DNA of 32,000 nt from Candidatus Saccharimonadota bacterium (GTDB taxonomy: Bacteria; Patescibacteriota; Gracilibacteria; UBA4473). Of this stretch, positions 11,678-18,016 are shown piece after piece. Both the position numbers and the translations under genes were made by a program. Where the stretch lies: contig OY781871.1 in NCBI GenBank assembly GCA_963677105.1, positions 390,001 to 422,000 on the forward strand, given 5' to 3'. The notes beneath the pieces were generated by a model. It had not been told where the DNA came from. It ran no database searches and saw only the letters and a program-made list of their open reading frames with translations. Within the stretch, counting starts at the first letter, position 1, and each line of letters opens with the position of its first letter.

Positions 11678-12769
11678 CTACTCTTTGTTATTTGATAAAT
11701 CAAATATCTGAACTTCTTCCTGAGCAAACGCGGAAAAGTGCTCTATGTGTGTCGTACTAAAAAACACTTGTGAATCAACACATAATTTTTCTAATGCTGC
11801 TTGACGAACTGAATCAAGTTCAGAAAAACAGTCATCCAATAGCAAAATCGGCGGAACTCCACTGTGAGAAGATAGAATTTGTTTTTGTGCTGCAAGTAAT
11901 GCTAATAAAACTGATCGTTCTTCTCCACGACTTGCTGTGGAAATCAGCGGACGATTTCGAAGACGAAACACAAAATCATCACGATGTGGTCCTAAAAAAC
12001 TTTTTCGTGCTGCACATTCGCGTTGAAAATTTTCAGAAAAAAACTGACGAACTCCGTCTTCTGTCGGTTCATATTCTTCAGGAGTTTGTAACTCCACTGA
12101 AATGGAATCTGAGGAGTGAGAAATCTCTGTTAATTGCTGCTGAAATGGATCGGATAAAGATTGAAGGAACTCCGTTCGTTCTTTCCAAATATCTGGAATT
12201 ACGTTCGCAAGAATTTCATTCCATGGTTGTAAATCTTGAGTTCGAACTTGAGAAATAACTCTTCCACTTAAGTTCGAACTCGACTCTCTCAATAACGCAT
12301 TTTTTTGTCGTGTCGCTTTATCTGCACGAGAAAGATTCTCTCTATAAATGGGAGAAAGTTGAGATAATACACGATCAAAAAACTGTTGTCGTGCGCGTTT
12401 CGCCCCAGAAAAAAGCGATAAATGTTCTGGCGCAAATAACAAAGTAGGAATTTGTCCAAAAAATTTCTTTCGAGTTATTTTTTTCTCGTTTCGTATAAAT
12501 GCTCTTCCTCGTGGCTGAATCTGAATTTTAAATTGATCACCCGAACCCAAGATTGCTTGAATCTGAGCTGAATCTGCTCCATTACGAATCAAGTCAGAAG
12601 AAATAGTTTCTCTCCAGCTTTTCCCTACACTCAAGAGTGAAATCGCTTCTAACACATTCGTTTTCCCTCGTCCGTTCCCACCAACAAGCACTACAATATT
12701 TTTTTCAAATTCAAAAACTCGCTCTTTATAATTGCGAAAATCATGAAGGATGAGCGTTCGTAAAGTCAT
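11678..12769 (-). CDS. recF: DNA replication and repair protein RecF
   Basis: 363 aa with Walker A GGNGRGKTNVLEAISLL, QKNALLRE and the Walker B-like ILLLDDCFSELD. Confidence 0.9.
   Translation of the reverse strand: MTLRTLILHDFRNYKERVFEFEKNIVVLVGGNGRGKTNVLEAISLLSVGKSWRETISSDLIRNGADSAQIQAILGSGDQFKIQIQPRGRAFIRNEKKITRKKFFGQIPTLLFAPEHLSLFSGAKRARQQFFDRVLSQLSPIYRENLSRADKATRQKNALLRESSSNLSGRVISQVRTQDLQPWNEILANVIPDIWKERTEFLQSLSDPFQQQLTEISHSSDSISVELQTPEEYEPTEDGVRQFFSENFQRECAARKSFLGPHRDDFVFRLRNRPLISTASRGEERSVLLALLAAQKQILSSHSGVPPILLLDDCFSELDSVRQAALEKLCVDSQVFFSTTHIEHFSAFAQEEVQIFDLSNNKE
12239..12280. repeat. palindrome doublet AGTTCGAACT x2 inside recF coding sequence
   Basis: Perfect 10-bp palindromes at 12239-12248 and 12271-12280, 32 nt start to start. 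Confidence 0.9.
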
Positions 12770-12789
12770 CGATCATATTTTAACACTTG

Positions 12790-12833
12790 AGTTCGAACTT
12801 GTCTTGTTCCTATTTTCTTTTCAAGTTCGAACT
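12790..12833. repeat. palindrome doublet AGTTCGAACT x2 in the recF/transposase spacer
   Basis: Copies at 12790-12799 and 12824-12833, 34 nt start to start. The second touches the transposase stop codon (12833-12835). Confidence 0.9.
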
Positions 12834-13372
12834 TATTCAAACCCCGGATCAAATTCAGGATCTAATCCAATAGCTTCAATTATTGGAAATTCATTTGTCG
12901 ATGTTCCCCCTGCCCAAACCCATTCTTCCACATTTTCAACTATTTCATGTTTCAACGCATTATAACGAATATAATATGCCACTTTTTGTAAATAATTTTC
13001 ACTTATAATTTCTTTTGAATTAAAACGTCCTTCAAAAATAGGAGCCTTTTGTCCTTTTTTAACAGAATCACCATATTTTCTATTAAAATACATAGCATAC
13101 GATTGCTGAATTTTTTGCATAAACTTTGAAATTTGTGACGCTTCTCCGGCCTCTAAGTTCGAACTTGATATGTCCTCCGATAACAAAAAATGAAAATGAT
13201 TTGGTAAAAAACACCAAACATAAATTTTGATTGTTGGAAATTTTAAGAGATAACGCTTTATTGTGTCCCCAAACCGTATTAAATCTTGATCACAAAAAAA
13301 CAATCTTTGTTTGTTACATCCTCTATTATAAATATGATAATAAATACCTTTTTTAAAATTTCTCTTTTGCAT
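12833..13372 (-). CDS. IS200-like HUH/Y1 transposase, REP-associated tyrosine transposase (RAYT)-like
   Basis: 179 aa: GIYYHIYNRGCNKQRLF..., HUH-type motif PNHFHFLL, C-terminal YYIRYNALKHEI with a candidate catalytic Tyr. It is a single gene without IS terminal structures but is surrounded by short palindromes. Confidence 0.75.
   Translation of the reverse strand: MQKRNFKKGIYYHIYNRGCNKQRLFFCDQDLIRFGDTIKRYLLKFPTIKIYVWCFLPNHFHFLLSEDISSSNLEAGEASQISKFMQKIQQSYAMYFNRKYGDSVKKGQKAPIFEGRFNSKEIISENYLQKVAYYIRYNALKHEIVENVEEWVWAGGTSTNEFPIIEAIGLDPEFDPGFE
13156..13165. repeat. AGTTCGAACT palindrome inside the transposase gene
   Basis: Perfect copy, read as tca AGT TCG AAC TTa (SSSNL) in the transposase frame. 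Confidence 0.9.
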
Positions 13373-13458
13373 TTTAGGAACTTAGAAACCTACCCAAAAC
13401 ACTAATAAAAATAAGAAAAACAACAAACATCCTTTTTCATAAAACTTTAATACAAACA

Positions 13459-13468
13459 AGTTCGAACT
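13459..13468. repeat. AGTTCGAACT palindrome upstream of the transposase gene
   Basis: Perfect copy in the spacer between the transposase start and the SLH-gene terminator. Confidence 0.9.
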
Positions 13469-13483
13469 TAAATTAAATAATAA

Positions 13484-13583: not shown

Positions 13584-16500
13584 TTAGTCAGCGTTTGTCA
13601 TAGATGTTGTGTCAGTATCAAGCAAGTAACCGTTCAACCAGTCAAGTGTTGAGTCTGTGTGAGCGTTTGAAGACTCATCTGACCATACAGTCTTTGTTGT
13701 TTGAGTAGCTACGTTAGCAAGTGTAGCTGAAGTCAATCCTGTTGCTGCAAATGCTACTGTTTCAACAACAGTGTTTGCTCCAAGAACTGTAACTACACCA
13801 CCTGCAGAAGTTGTTGTAACTCCTGTGATAGATGCTGCGTCGATTAACGCTTTGATTGCATCAGCAACTGCTGTGTTAGCTCCCGCTCCCACACCAATCA
13901 ATGAAACTGCTGTTCCGTTAATTGTTAATGTACCTGCTGTCGAAGCAGCTGTAGTTGTTCCAACAATTGTATATGTTGAAGTCTGAGTCAACGCTGCTTT
14001 CGCTGCTGGTGCAACATATGCTGAATCGTTAGAAATTGTTACGTTCACTGCGTCATCGTCAGCAGCTGTTCCTGTGTCTACTGTATTGTCCATAAACAAT
14101 GCAAATGTTCGTGACTCTCCTGATGCCAATCTCTGGTTTGAGAAGTTTACAGTAACAGTTCCAGCTATGTCGTTTGCAGCTGTGAATGTATCCACAATTG
14201 ATGAAGTAACTGTAGCAGTATTATCGATTGTTCCGTCAGTTTTTACCTGTCGAACAACGAATCCTGCGTCAGCAGATGTCTTCATTCCTGACAATGCAAC
14301 ATCGAATGTTACTCGTCCAATCTCAGCCTGACGAGCTGCATCAGCTGAAATTGTGAATCGATAAATCTCTTGTGAAGCAGATGATGGATCTGAGAAGTTT
14401 GGCTGTGTAGCAGCGTGTTTCACAGAAACCTCAGTTCGGTAAGCCACGAATGGTTCACCAGCGTAAGTTCCGCTAATTTGACCTGCTGCCAAATCAGTTC
14501 CTGTAGCTGCAGTAAGTGCCTCTACTCCATTAGCTGTTCCTTCTGATGTGTCAGTAGTCAATTTCAATCGTTTACCAGTCATTGATGCTTGAGTAATATC
14601 TCGAACATCAACTTTAAGAGTAACAAATGTTGAATCGTCTTTTGGAACAGAAATTCGATCTTGGTTTGCAAGCTCGAAGTGTAGCAAGTCTCCTGTTTGC
14701 ATCTGTTTTGTCTGAACAAGTTGTCCAGCCTCATTGTACAATTTGAAGTCTGCTCGTGGACCAAATGTAGTCCATGATCCAGAATTATTATCCAAGTACA
14801 AGTCTTTAATTTGTACCTCGTCGTCTGCTGCATTGAATCGAATCTTCAATACTTCTACTTCATCAGCTCCTGCTACGAGGATATCTGAGTAAATTGTAGA
14901 ACCAATACTCATAACAAGTGAACCACTTGCAACAAGTGTAAATGTAGAACCATTTACTGCTGTCATTGGAGTTGTTGCATTTCCTCCTGGGAGGTATACA
15001 GTTTGTCCATTTTCTACATTATCTGCATCAACAGCAGTAATTCTCATTCGAAGAACGTCTCCTGATGATGTTTCGTTTGTGTTTACTACAACAGCAAATT
15101 CTTTTTGACCTGCTGATGGCACAACCACTGACAAGTCGTTAAATGTTGCTACTTCTGTAGTAGTATTAAAGTTCTTTGATGAACCCTGCTGTGCACCGTC
15201 TACGAAAATCGCAGCAGTATAATTAGCAGCGTTTCCAATAGATCCAACTGAATCATCTGCATCTACTGTAATAGATGTAACATTTACATCACCTGAGTCA
15301 TTGTTATCAAGAACAAACTCCATGAATGTAACATCATCCAATCCAGCAACGATAGTCTCTGATGAGAATCCGTCTGTTTTTGTGATTGTCAAAGCTGATG
15401 CTGTAACCTCAACCAATGATCCTTGTGCTGAACCAAGTAATTGGTCAGTAGGAACCTGATCACCTGTAGAGATGTACTCTGGTGATGAGAAGCTTGATGA
15501 AGCTAGGTTGAACTTAATAGTTGATCCTGTAGGTGCTGCGTCTTGAATGTTTAGAACTAGTTTCAAGATTGAAGCTCCTGCAATTTCAAATGTTGTGTCG
15601 TACTCAAGTTTAGCTGTTCCTAATACATCTGTAGTATTTGCAACCATTGCGTTCTCACTGTCGATCAAGTTGTCGTTCAAGAACAATCGGTAGTTGTTGA
15701 ATGCTGCGTTAGCTCCAATCAAGTGGTTAGCTGTAGCAGAATTTGCAACAAGAACTCCTACATTTGCTGTTCCTGTGTAAACAGAAGTCAAAGTAACTCC
15801 GTCAACCAAGAGTGGCTGGTCTACGATAACACGTGCTGTCATAGCTACGATGTCGTTAGATCCTGGAGCGTACTGTTGGTTACCCAATGATGATGGGTCA
15901 CGTGAAACGTTGATGTCTCCTGAGTCGATTGTATACATTTTCAATCGTGCACAGTTGTCTTCAGCGTCGCTGTTAGAACAAGTACCACCTGTAGTTGTTG
16001 TTCCTGTAGTTGTTGTTGTAAGGAATGAGTCTGAAGTAGCTTTTACTCCAAATGCAGTTCCAATTTCAATAGCTACAAGGTCTTCAAAGTTATCAATTTT
16101 GAAGTTAATTGTGTCTCCTTTTTCTGCTGAAACGATGTCAGCACGCATTGAGAAGATTCGTGAATCACCATCTTCGATGATGTATCCTCCAGTAACTCCG
16201 TTGTCCAATCGGAAAGTGATGTAATCACCGTCGATGATAGACTCTGCAGATACTTGCTCTCCTGAAACGTACAAAGCAACGTTTTCAAGTACGTTTTCTA
16301 ATTCAGCTGTACCGTCGTTTTTGAAAGTAATAGCTCGAATCTCAACGTCTTTGTTTGTTGATGACTCGTTCAACATTCGGAATTTACCGATCTCGATGAA
16401 GTTGTCTCCAACGTCGATAGTTGTGTCTGATCCTAGATCTGAGAAATCAACCTCTGATACTTGGTAATCAGCTACTTCCATCTCTTCTCCCTCAATTGGG

Positions 16501-17567
16501 AAGTCTCCTACAACATTCATAGCAGTAGATGCTACGTCATCAGCAGAAACCAAAGCCAATCGGTTGTGGTGTCCAATGTTTTTGTCAGAAGAAGTGTATT
16601 TTGCTGAAGCTACAACGTCAGCAACCAAAGTTTGTCCCGCAGGAGTTACTAATGGTGGGTTGAAACGTAATTCAACTACGTCATCGTTGTTAATTGATTT
16701 GTCGTTTCCTACTTTGAAACCATCAATTTCCATCCATACGTTTTTGAAGTCGTCGTTGTCACCAAGACCAAGACGTGTGAAAGTCAATGAAGAAATCTCA
16801 ACGTCTGCGTCGTCTGATGCAGTCAACTCAATAGTAGTATAAGGAACTGAAGTAGCATTGTATGGAACGTTTGTTCCACGTGGTGTTTCTTCTGAAAGCA
16901 TAACTTCCAATGTTCCTTCTGCTGGTCCGTCTGGGATAGATACTGCTAACAAACCGTCGTAAACGATTTTTGCAGTCTCAGCACGGTTAACTGGTTTACT
17001 TGCTCCGAATGTTCCGTCAGCGTAACCACGCATAAGATCGTAGTTGTATGCTGTTTCAACATATTCGAAGAACCAGTCACCTGATGTTACGTCATCGAAG
17101 TGAGGAGCACCTGTTGTGTCCAAGTCAAGTTCGAGAGCGTTAATCACCATTTTTGCCAACTCAGCACGGTTGATTCCGTTACCAGGACGGAAAGTTCCGT
17201 CAGGGTTACCATCAATCCATCCGTAGTTGTACATTGTTTCTACGTAGTCGTAGTACCATGCGTCTTCTTCAACGTCTGGAAAGTGTGCCCCTCCAGTTGT
17301 GTCGAAATCAACACCTGATGCCAATGTAATAATTTTCGCTACCTCTGCACGATTTAATTGTCGTGCTGGTGCAAAAGAACCGTCTGCGTTACCTCCAAGC
17401 ACGTCTAAAGCGACAAGCTCTTCAATAGCTTCAACAGCCCATGTTGGGATCTCGTTTACATCTGTGAAGTCCAAGCTTGCGAATGCCAATGATGGAATCA
17501 TTGTAAACGCCATAGCTGAAACTGCCAATGCTGCGATTCCCTTTTTAAAATGAGACAAAATAGTCAT
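13584..17567 (-). CDS. S-layer-type surface protein with three N-terminal SLH domains (1327 aa)
   Basis: Start set at the ATG at 17567 (MTILSHFKKGIAALAVSAMAFTMIPSLAFA, signal-peptide-like); the track's GTG extension to 17642 is unlikely. Three SLH repeats: FTDVNEIPTWAVEAIEEL...NRAEVAKII, FPDVEEDAWYYDYVETMY...NRAELAKMV, FDDVTSGDWFFEYVETAY...NRAETAKIV. The rest is Thr/Ala/Val/Asp-rich and looks beta-rich. Confidence 0.85.
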   Translation of the reverse strand: MTILSHFKKGIAALAVSAMAFTMIPSLAFASLDFTDVNEIPTWAVEAIEELVALDVLGGNADGSFAPARQLNRAEVAKIITLASGVDFDTTGGAHFPDVEEDAWYYDYVETMYNYGWIDGNPDGTFRPGNGINRAELAKMVINALELDLDTTGAPHFDDVTSGDWFFEYVETAYNYDLMRGYADGTFGASKPVNRAETAKIVYDGLLAVSIPDGPAEGTLEVMLSEETPRGTNVPYNATSVPYTTIELTASDDADVEISSLTFTRLGLGDNDDFKNVWMEIDGFKVGNDKSINNDDVVELRFNPPLVTPAGQTLVADVVASAKYTSSDKNIGHHNRLALVSADDVASTAMNVVGDFPIEGEEMEVADYQVSEVDFSDLGSDTTIDVGDNFIEIGKFRMLNESSTNKDVEIRAITFKNDGTAELENVLENVALYVSGEQVSAESIIDGDYITFRLDNGVTGGYIIEDGDSRIFSMRADIVSAEKGDTINFKIDNFEDLVAIEIGTAFGVKATSDSFLTTTTTGTTTTGGTCSNSDAEDNCARLKMYTIDSGDINVSRDPSSLGNQQYAPGSNDIVAMTARVIVDQPLLVDGVTLTSVYTGTANVGVLVANSATANHLIGANAAFNNYRLFLNDNLIDSENAMVANTTDVLGTAKLEYDTTFEIAGASILKLVLNIQDAAPTGSTIKFNLASSSFSSPEYISTGDQVPTDQLLGSAQGSLVEVTASALTITKTDGFSSETIVAGLDDVTFMEFVLDNNDSGDVNVTSITVDADDSVGSIGNAANYTAAIFVDGAQQGSSKNFNTTTEVATFNDLSVVVPSAGQKEFAVVVNTNETSSGDVLRMRITAVDADNVENGQTVYLPGGNATTPMTAVNGSTFTLVASGSLVMSIGSTIYSDILVAGADEVEVLKIRFNAADDEVQIKDLYLDNNSGSWTTFGPRADFKLYNEAGQLVQTKQMQTGDLLHFELANQDRISVPKDDSTFVTLKVDVRDITQASMTGKRLKLTTDTSEGTANGVEALTAATGTDLAAGQISGTYAGEPFVAYRTEVSVKHAATQPNFSDPSSASQEIYRFTISADAARQAEIGRVTFDVALSGMKTSADAGFVVRQVKTDGTIDNTATVTSSIVDTFTAANDIAGTVTVNFSNQRLASGESRTFALFMDNTVDTGTAADDDAVNVTISNDSAYVAPAAKAALTQTSTYTIVGTTTAASTAGTLTINGTAVSLIGVGAGANTAVADAIKALIDAASITGVTTTSAGGVVTVLGANTVVETVAFAATGLTSATLANVATQTTKTVWSDESSNAHTDSTLDWLNGYLLDTDTTSMTNAD

Positions 17568-18016
17568 CTTTTTGGGATTATAAATAAAATCTTGTGGGTT
17601 CGAATAAACAAACCCGAAACTCCTAGAAAATGAAAAACTCACCGAATAGACACCGCAAAAGTAGCGGAATCACTCAGTGTTCTTTGAAATTCTTAGGCAT
17701 ATAAAAAAGTTGAAAAAGCTCTATATAAGGGTCTTTTCTCTAGAAAAATATTCTTTTCCGGCCGCTGTTTCAAAGAACGAGTTTTTTTATTCACTATCCC
17801 TTATGGAGAGCGAGCAGAGAGCGCATTTTTGTCACAAGTCTGCCAAACCACCGATATCGTATGAATTTATGGGGAAAAGTCAACATTTTCCCTGTCTTAC
17901 GAAACCGGTCATAAAATCAAACGAAAAAACCTAGAAAACGTTACAAATAAAACGAGAAACTGGTGTTGGAATCAATAACTCCAAATTGCCTGGAGTCAAG
18001 AAAGGAATAATACAAT
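17568..18016 (-). promoter_or_regulatory. long non-coding promoter/leader region of the SLH gene
   Basis: About 450 nt without a credible ORF. Two by-eye sigma70-like candidates lie on the minus strand: TTGACT (17883..17878), 16 nt, TACGAT (17861..17856); and TTGAAA (17773..17768), 17 nt, TATTTT (17750..17745). Either implies a leader of roughly 170-290 nt. Confidence 0.35.

Follow-up and report, generated by a model that had tools for sequence, protein, structure and literature searches.

The 32-kb window analyzed here (the whole stretch C1:390001-422000 of the studied genome, G000, which is closed and comprises 962,416 bp at 36% G+C) holds a gene for a Y1 tyrosine transposase of the HUH type, surrounded by six copies of one 10-base perfect palindrome, AGTTCGAACT. 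Probably, at roughly two chances in three, the gene product is a Y1 HUH nuclease of the RAYT/TnpA-REP kind that is domesticated and resident in the chromosome, with AGTTCGAACT as its cognate repeat. Together they would make up a system like the REPtrons, i.e., RAYT genes with their repetitive extragenic palindromic (REP) sequences, in a gene-local, low-copy state. This reading draws on the statistics of the repeat, the fold and catalytic residues of the protein, synteny among relatives, the pairing of each gene with a palindrome, and the hairpin potential of the repeats.

A local cluster of perfect palindromes

Copies of AGTTCGAACT start at positions 12239, 12271, 12790, 12824, 13156, and 13459 of the window, a span of 1.23 kb, and the 32-kb window holds no copy beyond these six. 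The positions match exactly those listed in the original prediction, which was made from the window's sequence. That prediction also held that such a palindrome should be expected far less than once in this length; the mean over dinucleotide-preserving shuffles is 0.02 copies, and at least six copies were reached in 0 of 100 shuffles. Four copies form two doublets with spacings (start to start, between copies of the same palindrome) of 32 and 34 nt, and these are the sole same-palindrome 10-mer doublets with a G+C of at least 40% in the G000 genome. The doublets and the placement of one copy in the Y1 gene and two in recF are likewise as predicted.

The whole genome carries nine copies of AGTTCGAACT, compared with about 1.1 expected from base composition, and six of the nine are at the locus. 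The other three (156715, 449169, and 851840) are isolated singles near the chance level, their settings being a 5' region, an isoleucyl-tRNA-synthetase-like gene, and a 228-amino-acid (aa) open reading frame (ORF). No copies with one mismatch were found in the interval from 395 to 410 kb of G000. This makes a real, local cluster of perfect copies that does not belong to any genome-wide family in G000. A genome-wide REP family was considered and is ruled out for this genome by the total of nine copies and by doublets that occur at the locus only.

Three genes of the window frame the cluster, all on the minus strand: a surface-layer (S-layer)-type gene (13584-17642), the Y1 gene, and recF. The features are as follows.

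12833..13372, minus strand: Y1 (HUH/Tyr) RAYT-like gene, an ORF of 179 aa with a PF01797 match
13459..13468, no strand assigned: upstream palindrome, 87 nt 5' of the Y1 start and some 20 nt past the S-layer-type terminator
13156..13165, no strand assigned: internal palindrome, in frame in the Y1 gene, encoding S70-S71-N72-L73
12790..12833, no strand assigned: doublet B, a pair of copies at a spacing of 34 nt, in the gap from the Y1 stop codon to recF
12239..12280, no strand assigned: doublet A, SSSNLSGRVISQVRTQ, copies 32 nt apart, 42 nt in total, in frame in recF
11678..12769, minus strand: recF, downstream neighbor and host of doublet A, PF02463 match of 62.8 bits
13491..13522, minus strand: intrinsic terminator of the S-layer-type gene, a 14-bp stem followed by a T run

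The upstream palindrome extends to the 12-nt sequence AAGTTCGAACTT at 13458-13469, and a palindrome is also present at the corresponding upstream position in relatives. Doublet B takes up the 63 nt that separate the Y1 stop codon from the recF start codon, with the copy at 12824-12833 overlapping the final base of the stop codon. Doublet A falls in a RecF linker between KNALLRE and LQPWNE, where its two copies are read as SSNL and VRT; palindromes occur in this linker in three genomes, and in those it is longer by 4-9 residues. Upstream, the Y1 unit ends at the terminator of the S-layer-type gene, which stands outside the repeat family, and Rfam gave only sub-threshold matches at the locus, located on this terminator. 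A recF promoter within doublet B was considered and rejected: a 9-of-12 match at 12805-12777 (minus strand), which spans the copy at 12790, is not above the shuffle frequency. No link to a replication origin or terminus is seen for the locus, which lies at 402 kb, with the cumulative skew minimum some 105 kb away (~507 kb) and dnaA at 193 kb.

The Y1 protein

The assignment of the protein to the Y1/HUH enzymes of the RAYT kind, made in the original prediction, is borne out. The 179-aa protein matches PF01797 (Y1_Tnp) at 33 bits, with a cut-off of 23, and an alignment of 58 sequences shows Y12, H13, R17, N58, H59, H61, F113, F117, and Y134 to be invariant, so that the two histidines of the HUH motif (H59, H61) and the tyrosine (Y134) are all retained. 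A direct sequence search against solved structures gave no match; the relation to TnpA-REP emerged by profile search, in which the family profile matched Escherichia coli TnpA-REP (4ER8) with an E value of 1.4e-9 and ISDra2 TnpA with an E value of 0.015. An AlphaFold (AF2) model has a predicted local distance difference test (pLDDT) score of 89.5 and a predicted template modeling (TM) score, pTM, of 0.85. The best Foldseek match of the model is 4er8_A (E value 1.5e-7, TM score 0.61/0.66), and the ISDra2 and IS608 transposases rank below it. The protein is an intact Y1 HUH/Tyr enzyme whose nearest relative by profile and predicted fold is E. coli TnpA-REP. The residues encoded by the internal palindrome lie in a predicted loop (67-78) that joins the HUH strand to the helix after it, and the mean pLDDT of residues 71-80 is 70.

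The gene is the sole PF01797 match in the G000 genome, and neither tnpB nor a second ORF is present at the Y1 locus. With copies of the palindrome on both sides, the description of a single-copy gene bracketed by its own palindrome holds. Homologues are found in the Peregrinibacteria, the Gracilibacteria, and other groups of the candidate phyla radiation (CPR), and several sources label them RayT.

The C-terminal tail F-D/N-P-x-F-E/D is conserved across the Y1 subfamily, and its coding DNA lies at 12836-12862 (minus strand) of the window. Speculatively, this tail-coding DNA, GATCCGGGGTTTGAA, resembles a decayed CCCGGG-type palindrome adjoining the downstream copy.

Each locus has its own palindrome

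The family surveyed comprises 43 genomes, 18 of which have this Y1 subfamily; synteny was compared at 19 loci in 16 related genomes, and 20 loci in 17 genomes were examined for palindromes. Across many genera, recF and/or an S-layer-type gene adjoins the Y1 gene at 15 of these 19 loci, with recF doing so at 10. Because these neighbors recur in 15 of 19 loci, the main Y1 lineage can be taken as resident and vertically inherited.

A cluster of a short perfect palindrome peculiar to the locus is found at all 20 Y1 loci, and its sequence varies from locus to locus. Examples include AGTTCGAACT, AGACCGGTCT/AGTCCGGACT, AACCCGGGTT, GAGACCGGTCTC, CATCCCGGGATG, GGATCCGGATCC, and AGGTCGACCT, and some of the locus palindromes reach a perfect 24-38 nt. 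Three genomes have two Y1 paralogs, and in each of them the paralogs have different palindromes: AGTTCGAACT and AGGTCGACCT in G048, GGATCCGGATCC and AGTCCGGACT in G043, and AGTTCGAACT and GGATACGTATCC in G044. In the Y1 tree the paralogs are not sisters, and close orthologues (G000/G002 and G046/G047/G048) have differing palindromes; a palindrome type that simply follows the Y1 tree is ruled out by these orthologues. Since paralogs are not sisters and orthologues differ in their palindromes, the copies at a locus must change together, and quickly.

The copy inside the gene is also a recurrent feature. An in-frame internal copy, often a doublet, occurs in the post-HUH loop (about residues 63-80) at 14 of the 20 loci. 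An orthologue in G021 (L009 1225-2169, G021:C13) is enlarged to 314 aa by NPGS/EPGF/DPGF-type peptides repeated in frame, both in the post-HUH loop and in the C-terminal part, and these runs are translated AACCCGGGTT-family palindromes and decayed copies of them.

A search of 80 more distant homologues found at least two perfect hairpins with the same stem near the gene in 19 of 42 CPR loci, with a scan that is blind to long-loop doublets. In G055 a different Y1 subfamily, with a protein of 188 aa, is accompanied by palindromes of its own, which are GC-rich and 20 nt long (L145 1418-2067, G055:C87). They lie upstream (GCGCGGTCACGTGACCGCGC), inside the gene, and just downstream (GCGCGACGGCGCCGTCGCGC), the same three-place layout with unrelated sequence.

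A doublet is predicted to fold as one hairpin

Folding of the two doublets gives stable stems. For doublet A, a stem of 12-16 bp is predicted at -12.4 and -11.1 kcal/mol on the two strands (z scores of -4.4 and -3.5); for doublet B, a 12-bp stem forms on either strand at -10.7 kcal/mol (z scores of -4.3 and -3.9). In G002 and G001, doublets with spacings of 32 and 34 nt have non-palindromic arms, AGTTCGGACT...AGTCCGAACT, which are exact mutual complements. Because arms that are not palindromes are exact complements, pairing between the arms is what is kept. Judged from these sequences, a doublet is one predicted hairpin with two arms and not two REP hairpins, and the suggestion that the doublets are REPINs does not stand.

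The spacing of 100 doublets from 10 genomes falls into discrete classes: 15 are at 12 nt, 21 at 14-16 nt, 29 at 18-24 nt (with a peak at 22-23), and 27 at 31-34 nt, with none at 25-30 nt. The G000 doublets belong to the 31-34-nt class, in which the arms are perfect and often reach 12 bp. Doublet positions were drawn from G000-G003, G006, G016-G019, G021, and G033. Spacings of 12, 22.5, and 33 nt fit steps of about 10.5 nt.

A different arrangement is seen in G020, where long perfect palindromes (24-38 nt, AGACCGGTCT-centered) occur on contig C1 as pairs 93 nt apart in at least eight places (for example, 213284/213377, 248969/249062, and 803319/803412; also L006 2843-2966). By their sequence, these pairs are apparently true two-hairpin, REPIN-like composites, and they are seen in G020 only.

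Dispersal in relatives

Several relatives carry the palindromes in much larger numbers. There are 64 copies of AACCCGGGTT in G003, 49 in G021, and 102 in G019, and 51 copies of AGTTCGAACT in G018, 38 in G019, and 24 in G001, with reversed-pattern controls giving 0-3 copies overall, and 0-1 for the AACCCGGGTT counts and the G018 count of AGTTCGAACT. The dispersed copies are mostly doublets with discrete spacings. They also gather around the Y1 gene: 28 of the 64 copies in G003 lie within 26 kb around it, on a 108-kb contig otherwise empty of copies, and the same holds for 20 of 29 copies within 144 kb in G020 and for 6 of 10 copies at the Y1 locus itself in G033. Of the 26 groups of copies in G003, 17 are outside ORFs of at least 100 aa. 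Within this range of dispersal, G000 seems to stand at the bottom. G001, from the same genus as G000, has 12 PF01797 matches, all of other Y1 subfamilies, and its recF region is not assembled; its 24 copies of AGTTCGAACT are accompanied by AGTCCGGACT, AGACCGGTCT, and AACCCGGGTT.

Comparison of G002 with its congener G000 gives a view of individual sites. A class I tRNA synthetase gene (ileS-like) of G002 carries a 33-nt in-frame doublet (L038 512-553, G002:C1), with no insert at the corresponding place in G000 (near 449195), a difference that points to gain or loss of the doublet within the genus. Other G000 sites orthologous to G002 palindromes have either a degenerate palindrome or a non-palindromic stretch of the same length. 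In-frame copies are found inside three housekeeping genes: recF, the ileS-like gene, and a radA-like gene. In the radA-like gene (L044 810-831, compared with G000 near 553080), the place is taken by AACCCGGGTTCGAACCCGGGTT in G002 and, in G000, by an unlike sequence of equal length that is itself an imperfect inverted repeat. Outside the window, near 489,620, G000 has AAACCCAGGATTTATCCCAGGTTT where G002 has a pair of AGACCGGTCT-type palindromes; from its sequence, AAACCCAGGATTTATCCCAGGTTT looks like a decayed 12-spaced doublet with the same G-to-A change in both copies.

A proposed mechanism and its alternatives

The working unit is most likely a single-stranded DNA hairpin made of two 10-12-nt arms lying 12-34 nt apart; each arm is its own reverse complement, and therefore both strands can form the same stem. 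If it acts as TnpA-REP does, the enzyme would bind these hairpins, nick nearby with Tyr134, and rejoin the strands, and the outcome would be that hairpins are copied or replaced, mostly close to the enzyme's own gene. Local hairpins may in addition control expression of the Y1 gene or recF. Such a process would explain why a locus holds only perfect copies of a single sequence, why the palindrome differs between orthologues and between the paralogs of one genome, and why copies accumulate beside the gene. It would also explain why copies survive only where they are tolerated, in intergenic DNA and in surface loops, here the RecF linker and the post-HUH loop of the enzyme itself. In G000, the dispersed population is essentially absent, leaving the gene-local set.

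A number of observations weigh against this account. The repeat is not dispersed in G000, and the two single copies (13156 and 13459) form no stable local hairpin on folding. The spacers of the 31-34-nt class are alike in length and not in sequence, unlike what simple copying and pasting of a whole element would give, and spacing classes of about 12, 22-23, and 32-33 nt resemble helical phasing on double-stranded DNA. The GTAG tag was found beside the palindromes in 0 of 8 14-nt flanks in G000 and in 1 of 46 in G003, and CGTC in none; the sole flank bias is a pyrimidine at -2, with A/C (G003) or A/G (G000) at -1. The match to the NCBIfam model REP_Tyr_transpos (NF047646), at 59.5 bits, is below the RayT equivalog cut-off of 80. 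Finally, there are palindromes without this enzyme. G019 has 140 palindromes, no Y1_Tnp match in its assembly, and recF and S-layer-type neighborhoods that lack a Y1 gene, and in genus g3 each of the three genomes holds 11-22 copies of AGTTCGAACT, mostly as doublets (spacing 32-35), with no Y1 of this subfamily. As to the single copies, a decayed partner was looked for and rejected, the only candidate being a marginal 3-mismatch match 33 nt from 13156 in conserved ISKF codons.

Strict co-occurrence of the palindromes with this Y1 therefore fails for G019 and genus g3, as judged from the relatives' fragmented assemblies; two congeners of G019 have 0-1 palindrome copies. Doublets can clearly persist without a cognate gene, and REPIN populations are known to be able to outlast their RAYT (PMC3116915, PMC3337134). 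The claims of the original prediction are affected accordingly. It is upheld in that 4ER8 is the closest solved relative, but the NCBIfam score does not reach the RayT level. The idea of a genuine REP/RAYT system, which had been advanced with reserve, gains from the enzyme, the synteny, the locus-own palindrome, and the dispersed doublets in relatives, and loses by the want of a genome-wide family in G000 and of a GTAG/CGTC tag. Enrichment elsewhere in the genome, which had been named as a touchstone, is not seen in G000, where the three copies outside the cluster are all singles; by the prediction's own standard, the idea is half refuted in this genome.

The discrete spacings and the conserved length of the spacers would also suit palindromes that serve as double-stranded binding sites, or as RNA or DNA structural signals, for something else (a dimeric regulator, a nucleoid protein, or an attenuator or terminator), with a link to Y1 that is regulatory or incidental. 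The classes lie about one helical turn apart and are empty at 25-30 nt, most G003 doublets are outside ORFs of at least 100 aa, palindrome-rich genomes without this Y1 exist, and a weak recF promoter-like match runs across the copy at 12790. We regard this as unlikely: a genome-wide regulator does not predict a separate palindrome for each Y1 locus that differs even between paralogs, the in-frame copies sit in unrelated housekeeping genes, the arms co-vary in a way that preserves their pairing, and shuffles give promoter-like matches at least as often. It is less likely still that another enzyme, such as a Y1 of another subfamily working in trans, or else some recombination or repair quirk of the lineage, spreads or maintains the palindromes and that the Y1 gene is merely a favored landing place. 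Genus g3, where AGTTCGAACT doublets are retained and any Y1 belongs to another subfamily, the lack of a detected Y1 in G019, the 12 PF01797 matches of other subfamilies in G001, and the presence of several palindrome types together in one genome all fit that view. However, the paralog-specific palindromes tie the repeats to the adjacent gene, the position inside the gene is fixed at 14 of 20 loci, and the gradient of copy density is centered on the gene.

The same palindromes border the gene as end hairpins border insertion sequences (ISs) of the IS200/IS605 type, and IS608 and ISDra2 TnpA have a similar fold as well, which raises the question of an ordinary autonomous element that inserted recently between recF and the S-layer-type gene. 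This is very unlikely for a single-copy gene with no tnpB and with shared neighbors in 15 of 19 loci across many genera; the palindrome moreover occurs past the supposed ends, in recF, and inside the gene, and the profile is far nearer to TnpA-REP than to the IS enzymes. Chance or a coding-driven coincidence has a negligible claim. Three copies are coding and two of them encode the same SSNL peptide, but the other three are non-coding, none of the 100 shuffles reached six copies, and the recurrence of the layout with other palindromes at 20 of 20 loci has already refuted this explanation. The preferred reading of a resident RAYT-like enzyme with its own repeat can also be pushed further, to a self-maintaining, gene-centered system that rewrites hairpins at fixed sites, its own reading frame included (self-targeting or autoregulation), with palindrome pairs recognized in helical phase on double-stranded DNA, as spacings of about 12, 22.5, and 33 nt would then imply, and with loop peptides written incidentally into essential proteins such as RecF and the IleRS-like and RadA-like proteins. 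This extended form is doubtful. If true, helical-phase recognition of double-stranded DNA would be a mode not described for HUH Y1 enzymes.

Comparison with known systems

REPtrons combine TnpA-REP/RAYT genes with flanking REPs and include E. coli yafM/rayT (PDB 4ER8) and the group 3 systems of Stenotrophomonas and Marinomonas (PMC2817692, PMC3333891, PMC8266576). The REPs on either side of a rayt gene belong to a class peculiar to that gene, and a genome may have several RAYTs, each with a class of its own (PMC2817692). The group 3 REPtrons have short perfect palindromes, which in Marinomonas are concentrated near tnpA-REP (PMC8266576). The system described here shares with REPtrons a single-copy, non-mobile Y1 HUH gene, its own palindrome on both sides, a separate repeat class for each paralog, and palindromy that is preserved by symmetric changes. 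It shares with the Marinomonas REPtron Mb the concentration of short perfect palindromes near the gene, and 4ER8 is the best match of the G000 protein in both sequence and fold. It differs in lacking the GTAG/CGTC tag, in arms that are themselves palindromes and pair over 2-24-nt loops in discrete size classes, and in its in-frame copies in housekeeping genes and in a fixed loop of its own enzyme. It also differs in having almost no dispersed population in G000 and in its CPR/Peregrinibacteria lineage, with a protein that scores below the NCBIfam RayT cut-off.

REPINs consist of two inverted REPs mobilized by a RAYT (PMC3116915, PMC3337134). As with REPINs, the doublet is the dominant form of the repeat, and populations are linked to a vertically inherited RAYT that they can outlast. 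Unlike in REPINs, the doublet here is a single two-arm hairpin, as far as its sequence tells, and the spacer sequence is not conserved between copies.

The IS200/IS605 elements (IS608 and ISDra2) are similar in the Y1 fold, in hairpins that flank the gene, and in the single-strand hairpin chemistry that would be expected. They differ in that their Y1 gene is multi-copy and mobile, in often having tnpB, and in having distinct rather than identical end hairpins; the much weaker profile match (0.015 compared with 1.4e-9 for TnpA-REP) points the same way.

Rickettsia palindromic elements (RPEs) are palindromic repeats of about 100-150 bp that lie in frame in protein genes and add loop peptides. 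They are not known to have a cognate transposase. The short in-frame palindromic inserts in coding genes described here may be likened to RPEs. The inserts are shorter, at 22-44 nt, are tied to a Y1 gene, and belong to a different lineage.

Significance

The system is probably REPtron-like, a very small natural case of an enzyme with its hairpins. Compared with the literature searched, its new features are its occurrence in the CPR, an in-frame copy at a fixed place in the gene of the enzyme itself, the in-frame copies in housekeeping genes, palindromic arms with discrete spacing classes, and the missing tag. With one enzyme, six sites in 1.2 kb, and almost none elsewhere, it offers a minimal case for how RAYT-type enzymes choose their hairpins. 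Close relatives have switched palindromes, and therefore the rules of recognition should be readable from natural swaps and testable with a few oligonucleotides. The fixed copy in the Y1 gene and the copies in recF, the ileS-like gene, and the radA-like gene indicate that repeats can reshape proteins in streamlined genomes.

Y1 loci are often found at contig ends or on very short contigs (G002:C7; G018:C203, of 1151 bp; G033:C14; and G044:C50), and many other matches to Y1 homologues are on contigs of 1-2 kb. This suggests that palindrome clusters break short-read assemblies and that the Y1 gene may be under-counted in draft genomes, and the placement of these loci is a practical warning for the assembly of CPR genomes.

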